Source of the DNA: an uncultured Phycisphaeraceae bacterium
GTDB lineage: Bacteria > Planctomycetota > Phycisphaerae > Phycisphaerales > UBA1924
Length of the DNA: 34,162 nucleotides
Assembly: GCA_964509325.1 (NCBI GenBank)
Contig: CAZDYM010000001.1
Span: 1-34,162, forward strand
Direction: 5' to 3'
Shown here: positions 6,839-7,789 of the stretch, in pieces
Layout: the number at the start of each line of letters is the position of its first letter
How positions within the stretch are numbered: position 1 is the stretch's first letter
Program-made: the position numbers and the translations under genes
The notes under the pieces: model-generated
Databases searched by the model: none
What the model saw: only the letters and a program-made list of their open reading frames with translations
Told to the model about the DNA's origin: nothing

Positions 6839-7789
6839 ATGACGACGTATGTCAGCAACAACACGCCCGCCTCCGCCGCTTCGGTCGGCTACGCGCCATT
6901 CAATGCGACGCAGCTTCGGACCGAGGGCAACAACATCATCGCGGGGCGGTACCGCGTTGAGGTGAGCGAGCACAACGTCAAGATCTATGATACGAAGACC
7001 AACCAGTGGGTGCACGCGCACGGCGATCCGCACTTCCACACCGGTGACGGGGACAAGGGTCAGTTCCACGATCAGAACCTAACGCTGGACCTGGCCGACG
7101 GCGTGAAGATCACCATCAAGGTGACGCCGAAGAACGGCGAGGGCCTGGCATTCATCGAGTCGGTGGCGGTGATGCGGAACGGTGAGGCGGTGGTCGCCCG
7201 GGGGGTGTCGGACAATCAGGCGGGAATCCAGATGGGCACGGTGCTGAACAACGCCGGCTCGGTGGACCGCGAGTGGGCCGACGGAACAGTGCTGCGTCTG
7301 GCCAACGAGGCGAACCTCGACGACCTGGTGTTCGCTGGGACGAACACGGAGTTCATCGGCGGCGACGCGTCGCAGCGGTTCGGCGAGATCATGTTCGACG
7401 GCAAGGGCGGGACGAGCCAGTTGGACTATGCCAAGTATGCGGCGCGTGAGAACGCTGGCAACGTAGTGACTCAGGCGTGGAACCCGTACGCGAACCAGAA
7501 TCCGAACGTGGTGTCGACGGGCGCGGCGCTGGTCTCTGGTCGCGTGCCGGTGGAGGAGCGGCCTGAGTACAAGCCGATGTTCACCGCGCTGAACGCGGCT
7601 CGGGGCGATGTCTCGCGGCTCAACGCCGAACTCGCCGCCGAGACCGACCCGGACAAGCGGAAGGAGATCCTGGTGAAGCTCCAGGAGGCGCGTCAGGAAG
7701 TGTCGTTCATCCTCAACATGATCAGCAACATGCTGAAGCAGGAGAGCGACGACCGGCTCGCGGTGGTCCGCAACCTCCGCACCAACTGA
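6839..7789 (+). CDS. DUF1521/MIIA (metal-ion-inducible autocleavage, GD|PH) domain protein with a needle-subunit-like C-terminal helix-turn-helix; candidate T3SS tip/filament subunit or effector
   Basis: ATG at 6839 with AAGGAG 6 nt upstream. The MIIA-like stretch is NVKIYDTKTNQWVHAHGDPHFHTGDGDKGQFHDQNLTLDLADGVKITIKVTPKNGEG, with GDPH at 7022-7033. The C-terminus LNAELAAETDPDKRKEILVKLQEARQEVSFILNMISNMLKQESDDRLAVVRNLRTN fits the needle pattern SN..K...D.......N.R exactly. No signal peptide. Confidence 0.65.
   Translation: MTTYVSNNTPASAASVGYAPFNATQLRTEGNNIIAGRYRVEVSEHNVKIYDTKTNQWVHAHGDPHFHTGDGDKGQFHDQNLTLDLADGVKITIKVTPKNGEGLAFIESVAVMRNGEAVVARGVSDNQAGIQMGTVLNNAGSVDREWADGTVLRLANEANLDDLVFAGTNTEFIGGDASQRFGEIMFDGKGGTSQLDYAKYAARENAGNVVTQAWNPYANQNPNVVSTGAALVSGRVPVEERPEYKPMFTALNAARGDVSRLNAELAAETDPDKRKEILVKLQEARQEVSFILNMISNMLKQESDDRLAVVRNLRTN

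Follow-up and report, generated by a model that had tools for sequence, protein, structure and literature searches.

A predicted self-cleaving MIIA domain joined to a needle-like hairpin in a divergent type III secretion locus of Planctomycetota

The T3SS (type III secretion system) locus of an uncultured Phycisphaeraceae bacterium (assembly GCA_964509325.1, contig CAZDYM010000001.1; the window, meaning the whole stretch of 34,162 nucleotides analysed here) encodes a 316-residue protein (6839-7789, + strand, stop codon included) in which a metal-ion-induced autocleavage (MIIA, DUF1521) domain precedes a helical hairpin resembling the needle subunit SctF. We regard the two-module composition of this protein and its association with a T3SS as highly probable; the fusion is a new architectural variant assembled from two known modules, and it belongs to a conserved family of T3SS-cluster genes rather than being a one-off. 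The best explanation, to which we give roughly an even chance (about 0.5), is that the protein is a T3SS substrate that serves as a tip, sheath or extension-filament subunit, its hairpin docked at or on the distal needle. A literature search returned no paper on an MIIA domain joined to a needle-like module, nor on a Planctomycetota injectisome, in line with the remark in a preliminary description, made from the DNA letters alone, that no described needle, filament or tip subunit carries an MIIA domain.

The protein is the same as the contig's database gene call (P0001). Its frame has a third-position GC content (GC3) of 0.87 in a sequence of 68% GC, with the codon-position GC pattern typical of a real gene, and the ATG at 6839 is preferred over a GTG at 6782 because homologs begin at the equivalent Met. 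The AlphaFold2 model (61-sequence alignment; mean predicted local distance difference test, pLDDT, 87) begins with 25 disordered, Ser/Thr/Asn-rich residues (6839-6913, pLDDT ~50), in which hydropathy analysis found no hydrophobic segment or signal peptide and which are a candidate type III export signal. The beta-rich MIIA domain comes next (residues 26-205, 6914-7453), followed by a low-confidence linker (residues 206-244, 7454-7570, pLDDT 46-66) that varies in length and sequence across the family and is gappy in family alignments, and by the needle-family-like helix-turn-helix hairpin (residues 245-316, 7571-7786), which is delimited by the model, a profile search of the PDB and hhalign.

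The first module is recognised by a curated model: Pfam DUF1521 (PF07481) matches residues 37-153 with E=5.7e-12 and 46.4 bits, above its gathering score of 23.6 bits, which bears out the DUF1521/MIIA signature noticed earlier at residues ~40-110, and the same model matches all seven close homologs. AlphaFold2 builds the domain from 13 strands at pLDDT >90. The GDPH motif (G62-D63-P64-H65, 7022-7033), which the preliminary description had placed correctly, lies in a turn between strands 56-61 and 65-68, and its position predicts D63|P64 as the scissile bond. It is invariant in 7/7 close homologs, the flanking DGD/acidic positions are conserved as well, and it aligns with the GDPH of VIC_001052 from Vibrio and of NopE1. 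Metal-ion-induced autocleavage is known only for VIC_001052 and NopE1/2 (PMC6506597, PMC8367979). The Vibrio domain is disordered without metal, binds two Ca2+ ions with a low-micromolar dissociation constant (Kd) and, once Ca2+-bound, folds and then cleaves C-terminal of the GDPH Asp, D116 in VIC_001052 (PMC6506597); for NopE, cleavage is needed for function in the host (PMC8367979).

The window protein shares with NopE1, NopE2 and VIC_001052 (full sequences taken from the PMC6506597 supplement) a homologous MIIA domain in which GDPH is followed by an acidic DGD-rich stretch (BLASTP over the MIIA domains, E=1e-6 to VIC_001052 and 1e-5 to NopE1), and all are encoded in or near T3SS clusters (PMC6506597; loci L013-L019). 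None of the three, however, has the needle-like tail (module hidden Markov model, HMM, <=2.6 bits), and NopE1 and NopE2 carry two MIIA domains each where the window protein has one; the Bradyrhizobium genes matched by our family search are NopE-like and tail-less as well. VIC_001052 does align past its MIIA domain over residues ~279-321 ('TEPDEK...LYNTLNNM' against 'TDPDKRK...ILNMISNM' in the window protein, covering the turn of the hairpin and the final helix as far as its middle), then diverges into ~45 unrelated residues; this stretch may be a degenerate remnant of the needle-like module, which we do not claim. The protein P0010 was considered as VIC_001052 itself (both have 370 residues and the GDPH Asp at 116) and rejected, the sequences being unrelated outside the MIIA domain.

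A G-D|P-H in a turn between two strands of a beta-sandwich is also found in the GDPH-cleaving VWD domains of FCGBP, MUC2, MUC5AC and VWF. Foldseek pairs the MIIA model with VWD domains at probabilities up to 0.82 (3.2-3.3 A over 88 columns), matches that are not significant (E >=0.04), and the family sequence profile touches the FCGBP GDPH sites; together these hint that the Asp-Pro self-cleaving sandwiches of VWD type may have a bacterial relative in MIIA. FCGBP cleavage makes the domain more stable and leaves its fragments associated (PMC10880436). VWD cleavage differs in that no Ca2+ switch is reported for it and in that disulfides, which the window protein lacks, hold its fragments together.

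For the second module, the profile-level evidence supports a needle-family-like hairpin in the C-terminal ~72 residues, beyond a generic coiled coil. Taken singly, the window protein scores weakly with the curated SctF models: PF09392 gives 12.7 bits (E=0.15) for the full protein and 16.2 bits (E=0.012) for the C-terminus alone, and TIGR02105 12.9-16.5 bits (E=0.11 for the full protein, E=0.008 for the tail alone), against curated cut-offs of 29.4 and 41.7 bits, respectively. The needle family is nevertheless the sole second match of the full protein in both the Pfam and the NCBIfam libraries, at these sub-threshold scores. Among 65 family members, SctF models are touched by just 5-6 C-termini; SctF is the most often matched family in the Pfam and NCBIfam scans, and single members weakly touch many coiled-coil families too.

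Pooling the 65 C-termini into one profile (A3) gives much stronger evidence. Searched against 177,635 distinct PDB sequences, A3 ranks first a needle fragment resembling SsaG (7y6c_F, E=0.0027), then MxiH at ranks 2-5 (E=0.005-0.016), PrgI at 7-8, YscF at 11 and EspA at 12 (E=0.22), and all of these needle and EspA matches align at their extreme C-termini. The top match is a needle C-terminal fragment in a chaperone complex, confirmed as such by a profile of canonical needles (E=1e-13); the canonical set consists of seven sequences, for which comparison with the PDB gave E ~1e-30. Direct comparison of A3 with the canonical needles in hhalign gives 82.5% probability (P=1e-5), and 91% on gap-trimmed columns (P=1e-6, score 31.9 over 60 columns). 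Reversed profiles score 8-9 against 29-32 for the real ones, and 300 column shuffles of the gap-trimmed alignment reach a mean of 8.5 (standard deviation 1.8, maximum 13.9) against 31.9. As a calibration, the canonical needle profile recovers the accepted homologs PrgJ and MxiI at 20-21 bits only, and A3 reaches MxiH in the same score range.

The alignment also has a consistent register. With PrgI, hhalign pairs Q282/Q48, N293/N59, S296/S62, N297/N63, K300/K66, D304/D70, V309/I75, V310/I76, N312/N78 and R314/R80, which include the residues invariant across the seven canonical needles; the pattern SN..K...D.......N.R read off the final helix in the preliminary description thus holds and extends further. 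More generally, the hairpin and the needle subunits PrgI, MxiH, YscF, PscF, EscF and SsaG have in common a helix-turn-helix of ~70 residues and a C-terminal helix with Q, N, S/T-N, K, D, I/V-I/V, N and R, ending 2-4 residues past a conserved Asn (2 residues from the end in PrgI and MxiH, and 2-4 in almost all of the 68 family members). The differences are (i), a D-P-D turn in the window hairpin in place of the P-x-x-P of needle subunits; (ii), ~244 extra N-terminal residues with a folded, predicted self-cleaving domain; and (iii), the position of the gene, since SctF is a small protein (~70-90 residues) encoded between sctE and sctG, unlike the 316-residue protein encoded on the other strand, upstream of sctV.

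In the AlphaFold2 model the C-terminal module consists of a helix (245-267), a T-D-P-D turn and a second helix (271-315), as the helix, DP turn and helix foreseen for the last ~75 residues, and it is predicted with pLDDT 95.5 when modelled alone. MxiH of the assembled needle (6rwy_L) superposes over its full length on this hairpin (template modelling (TM) scores 0.80/0.79, root-mean-square deviation 2.0 A, 68 columns). Foldseek returned no significant match with either the full-length or the hairpin-only model, and structure alone therefore cannot decide needle membership. The proposed checks divide: DUF1521 is significant but the SctF models are not, the superposition on a needle subunit is close but no better than on generic hairpins, and the tail does no better than generic coiled coils in structure comparisons but does better in sequence profiles.

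A further link to needles comes from within the same cluster. On the minus strand, upstream of the MIIA gene, an operon encodes in order a lipoprotein-like protein, proteins of 90 and 114 residues, a tetratricopeptide repeat (TPR) protein, a 128-residue protein, an sctI-like protein and SctJ, an order that reproduces yscE-F-G-H-I-J and therefore places the 114-residue gene (3068-3412, -) at F, between an E-like gene and a TPR G-like gene, as yscF is. This sctF-position protein matches no curated needle model; its Gly-rich (GxxxG-like) N-terminal half replaces the first needle helix and is followed by a single C-terminal needle-like helix, a design common to six relatives of 107-121 residues. 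An HMM built from the tails of MIIA proteins alone finds it at E=1.7e-11, together with its orthologs in L006 and L001; a search with the sctF-position protein itself finds two relatives only. Aligned as a family of six (A6), these proteins match the MIIA-protein tails in hhalign with 98.3% probability (P=1.9e-14), and the canonical needles, in the same register, with P=0.003 only. The tail of the MIIA protein is thus a paralog of the lineage's own SctF candidate and bridges it to the classical needles, and the final-helix pattern previously noticed in the sctF-position gene is confirmed. Several family members (P0005, P0013, P0021, P0030, P0063 and the L012 protein, L012 9653-10966) themselves begin with 40-60 Gly-rich residues of GxxxG type, like those of the sctF-position protein; in these, MIIA looks like an insertion into an SctF-like frame, in a region of low complexity where homology is not claimable.

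The remaining genes of this operon fit its order. The sctE-position gene (90 residues, 3522-3794, -), at the place of a YscE-like needle co-chaperone, has a weak T3SS_needle_reg match (E=0.23) and syntenic counterparts in L001, L006 and L025. The TPR protein at the position of the YscG-like co-chaperone (2525-3013, -) has TPR family matches and is syntenic in L001 and L006. A candidate inner-rod gene resembling sctI (1676-2110, -) matches PF17001 (T3SS_basalb_I) below threshold, at E=0.0069 over its C-terminal 43 residues, and sctJ (734-1627, -) matches PF01514 (YscJ_FliF) at E=5.5e-19. The gene at the operon head (3791 to ~5200, -) encodes ~470 residues with a lipoprotein-type signal (…AAAGGSSSLGC); it has no family match and is conserved in L001, L006 and L025 (467-520 residues). 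Neither the window nor the syntenic loci showed a secretin gene.

The fusion is widespread. An exhaustive profile search returned 595 representatives of 50%-identity clusters at E <=0.001, and among the best 155 of these the tail is found at the extreme C-terminus (HMM E <1e-3) in at least 68, a minimum, given that the HMM misses divergent tails such as '...QIIENMRA' in L011. All relatives that carry a name belong to Planctomycetota (Phycisphaerae, Phycisphaerales, Tepidisphaeraceae and unclassified Planctomycetota metagenome-assembled genomes), an assignment that covers these named relatives, most members coming from unlabelled metagenomes. Wherever a locus offers enough flanking sequence, the gene immediately follows sctU, shortly precedes sctV, or both (the window, L001, L004, L008, L009, L010/L022/L023, L011, L012, L021 and L024), a slot held across members just 25-35% identical. 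Thus, L021 has sctR-S-T-U followed by the MIIA-hairpin gene; L022/L023 (on the same contig as L010) has sctR-S-T-U, the MIIA-hairpin gene and sctV; L024 has sctU, the MIIA-hairpin gene, a 476-residue gene, sctV, a forkhead-associated (FHA) gene and a sigma factor gene; the L004 copy is flanked by sctU and sctV; and in L009, L011 and L012 the gene directly follows sctU, with sctV further downstream. L001 and L006 repeat the window arrangement, and L025 has a similar divergent layout with upstream genes of 520, 80 and 121 residues, the last being the sctF-position homolog. The genome survey proposed in the preliminary description therefore yields a conserved family in a fixed sctU/sctV slot, and the window system is a divergent T3SS of Planctomycetota type.

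In L008, sctU is followed by one gene and two tandem MIIA-hairpin copies (8324-9421 and 9662-10843, +). This locus is part of a complete Phycisphaerales chromosome (CP070718.1) in which sctU is detached from sctRST and has housekeeping genes and C10 and CHAT protease genes as neighbours, so that its T3SS genes appear scattered; that the tandem paralogs stand outside a T3SS context was ruled out by tblastn, which shows an sctU homolog directly upstream.

The cleavage motif is less constant than the architecture: GDPH is kept in 58 of the 68 fused members. Of the ~10 without it, at least one (P0090, 161 residues) is an N-terminally truncated fragment that misses the region, while several full-length members carry GDMQ, GDML, GDMN, GDSH or GGQY instead (P0155, P0143, P0110, P0028, P0085, P0077); the latter, with beta domain and needle-like tail, are probably non-cleaving variants. 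That the members lacking GDPH keep fold and tail argues for a role of the scaffold on its own. P0155 ends in '...EAAIIRNFR', near-identical to the PrgI/MxiH terminus.

How might the two modules work together? By homology to VIC_001052 and NopE1/2, the MIIA domain would be unfolded at cytoplasmic Ca2+ levels, and the protein would be exported unfolded through the needle. The hairpin would then enter the helical lattice, at the distal needle or on it, which would give the protein a role analogous to that of SctA tip proteins or EspA. Structures of the PrgI and MxiH needles (solid-state nuclear magnetic resonance and cryo-electron microscopy) place the subunit N-terminus at the outer surface and the C-terminal helix along the lumen, and polymerisation requires the last few residues; because the N-terminus faces outward, an N-terminal MIIA extension would be displayed outside. 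There, extracellular Ca2+ would bind the domain, causing it to fold and to sever its own chain at the D63-P64 bond; this one-way, post-export maturation would remove or re-arrange the first 63 residues, the export signal included. Given that VWD-type cleavage stabilises without separating the fragments (PMC10880436), the cut may serve maturation or locking more than release. MIIA is switched on by micromolar Ca2+ (PMC6506597), so that any extracellular medium should trigger it, as expected of post-export maturation and not of a Ca2+-depletion sensor; for the same reason, and because nothing shows a Ysc-type system, the earlier suggestion of a tie to the Ca2+ secretion cue of Ysc systems finds no support. 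The make-up of the protein, its homologies, their conservation and the genomic slot are what the analysis shows; secretion, needle assembly and the effect of cleavage are what we infer, and we put assembly with the needle at an even chance or slightly less.

The closest functional precedents would be EspA, the filament protein of enteropathogenic and enterohaemorrhagic E. coli, and SseB, which are T3SS substrates larger than the needle subunit, with a needle-related C-terminal coiled coil that polymerises on the needle. They are encoded next to translocator genes, and after the MIIA gene, in turn, come two genes whose products have hydrophobic segments, the place of translocator genes relative to those for tips and filaments. 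The likeness is limited: the sequence matches are weak (the EspA match of the A3 search given above and one family member touching the SseB model), there is no significant similarity outside the terminal helix, and EspA and SseB have neither an MIIA nor any other self-cleaving domain.

Several observations weigh against a place for the protein on the needle. The hairpin, in the window protein and in the family members alike, stays below every curated SctF threshold, the best value for any member being a still sub-threshold E=1.3e-4. In the Foldseek search with the hairpin, MxiH (6rwy_L) comes at rank 31 (E=0.41), below generic hairpins (EncB, ING4 and encapsulated ferritins at the top, all with E >0.1). 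A separate gene occupies the sctF position, so that the protein is not needed to explain the needle. One family member sits on a contig without T3SS genes, which is only 4.5 kb long. Finally, the characterised MIIA proteins are T3SS effectors or putative effectors (PMC8367979, PMC6506597), which by analogy favours an effector.

This last point leads to the strongest alternative, which we consider unlikely but far from negligible: a NopE-like secreted effector whose needle-like helix mimics the needle to borrow chaperones of SctE/SctG type and their export class, and which never joins the needle. Besides the effector status of its relatives, whose cleavage is needed in the host, it would account for the fact that the homologous region is the helix bound by needle co-chaperones (the top PDB match comes from a chaperone complex), for the E-like and TPR G-like genes of the cluster and for the tandem paralogs of L008, which are more typical of effectors. 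Mimicry of this kind would, however, call for the chaperone-binding helix, whereas the whole two-helix hairpin is conserved, with its exact C-terminal register and the needle-invariant residues; a fixed sctU-sctV slot across such divergent members would be unusual for effectors; and NopE1, NopE2 and VIC_001052 manage without a tail.

Alternatively, the protein could be a regulatory cap or plug whose hairpin, seated in the needle end or lumen, blocks secretion or ends needle growth until the state is altered by Ca2+-dependent cleavage or by the lack of it. A needle-like hairpin combined with a metal-switched domain and encoded among export-apparatus genes would suit such a device; it is nonetheless improbable, given that the low-micromolar Kd (PMC6506597) would bring about immediate cleavage in nearly any extracellular medium and leave little sensing range, that ~10 of the 68 members do without GDPH and that a Pfam scan of the protein gave no similarity to gatekeeper (SctW) or ruler (SctP) families. 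Slightly less probable again is that the MIIA protein is itself the main needle or filament subunit and the Gly-rich sctF-position protein does something else: the former does have the complete two-helix hairpin and the better match to canonical needles (P=1e-6, against P=0.003 for the single helix of the sctF-position family), but the yscE-F-G-H-I-J-type order puts the 114-residue gene at F, and its helix retains the same conserved residues. Convergence of amphipathic coiled coils, with no evolutionary or functional meaning, is what the uniformly sub-threshold curated scores, the generic hairpins at the top of Foldseek and the scattered weak coiled-coil matches of single members could be taken for, yet it is the least credible reading and we disfavour it, because needle proteins, a few dozen of the PDB sequences searched, fill 9 of the 12 top places, reversed profiles lose the score while they preserve composition and periodicity, 0 of 300 shuffles reach it, the alignment ends at the C-terminus in both families and the link to the sctF-position gene of the same clusters (P=2e-14) is independent.

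If the protein does dock on the distal needle, a wider proposal follows, which we advance tentatively and judge possible but short of probable: a lineage of injectisomes, in Planctomycetota and relatives, would construct its tip or extension filament out of a needle-family subunit, with a Ca2+-switched, self-cleaving MIIA domain displayed on every copy, so that the distal structure matures by autoproteolysis only outside the Ca2+-poor cytoplasm, and the SctF of the same lineage would be of an atypical kind, Gly-rich and single-helix. Such a scheme would couple the assembly or activation of a secretion machine in a new way to its surroundings. MIIA domains have previously been treated only as parts of translocated effectors, and needle hairpins only as small stand-alone blocks or as cores of tips and filaments; a fusion that keeps its conserved slot in at least 68 sequence clusters suggests that Ca2+-triggered autoproteolysis is used structurally or in connection with assembly, and offers a rationale for the MIIA genes inside T3SS clusters of Vibrio and Bradyrhizobium. 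Current annotation labels the family 'DUF1521 domain-containing' or 'hypothetical', and neither the tail nor the lineage's sctF-position gene is picked up by curated needle models. The family gives a concrete, testable way into the T3SSs of Planctomycetota, which are almost unstudied.

Downstream of the MIIA gene, the two genes with hydrophobic segments encode a protein of 221 residues (7939-8604, +) with one such segment (residues 171-200) and a protein of 501 residues (8672-10177, +) with a hydrophobic hairpin (residues 258-297), both defined by hydropathy and without a Pfam match. Their features are translocator-like, as far as can be inferred from hydropathy and position; the larger one, in which a fourfold Lys/Gly amphipathic repeat (~KKxGGAxKKG, residues ~213-250) immediately precedes the hydrophobic hairpin, may be a translocator or a membrane-active protein. 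The export gate gene sctV comes next (10414-12546, +; PF00771 FHIPEP, E=2.7e-192) and is adjoined by a regulatory block on the minus strand (12550-17677), with a sigma-70 family factor, an FHA protein with a YscD-like cytoplasmic domain, a Ser/Thr kinase and an FHA-GAF-PP2C (SpoIIE) phosphatase; together with the FHA and sigma factor genes after sctV in L024, this block suggests control of the T3SS by phospho-signalling.

The far end of the window is taken up by a giant reading frame (20700-34160, +) of at least 4,487 codons, which runs off the window end and has an N-terminal two-partner secretion (TPS) domain (E=1.4e-21). Minus-strand reading frames at 20.9-33.8 kb were rejected as genes, being antisense shadows of this giant plus-strand gene. 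Directly before it lies a ShlB/FhaC-like gene of 954 residues (17788-20652, +), and the two therefore form a two-partner secretion (TpsB/TpsA) pair.

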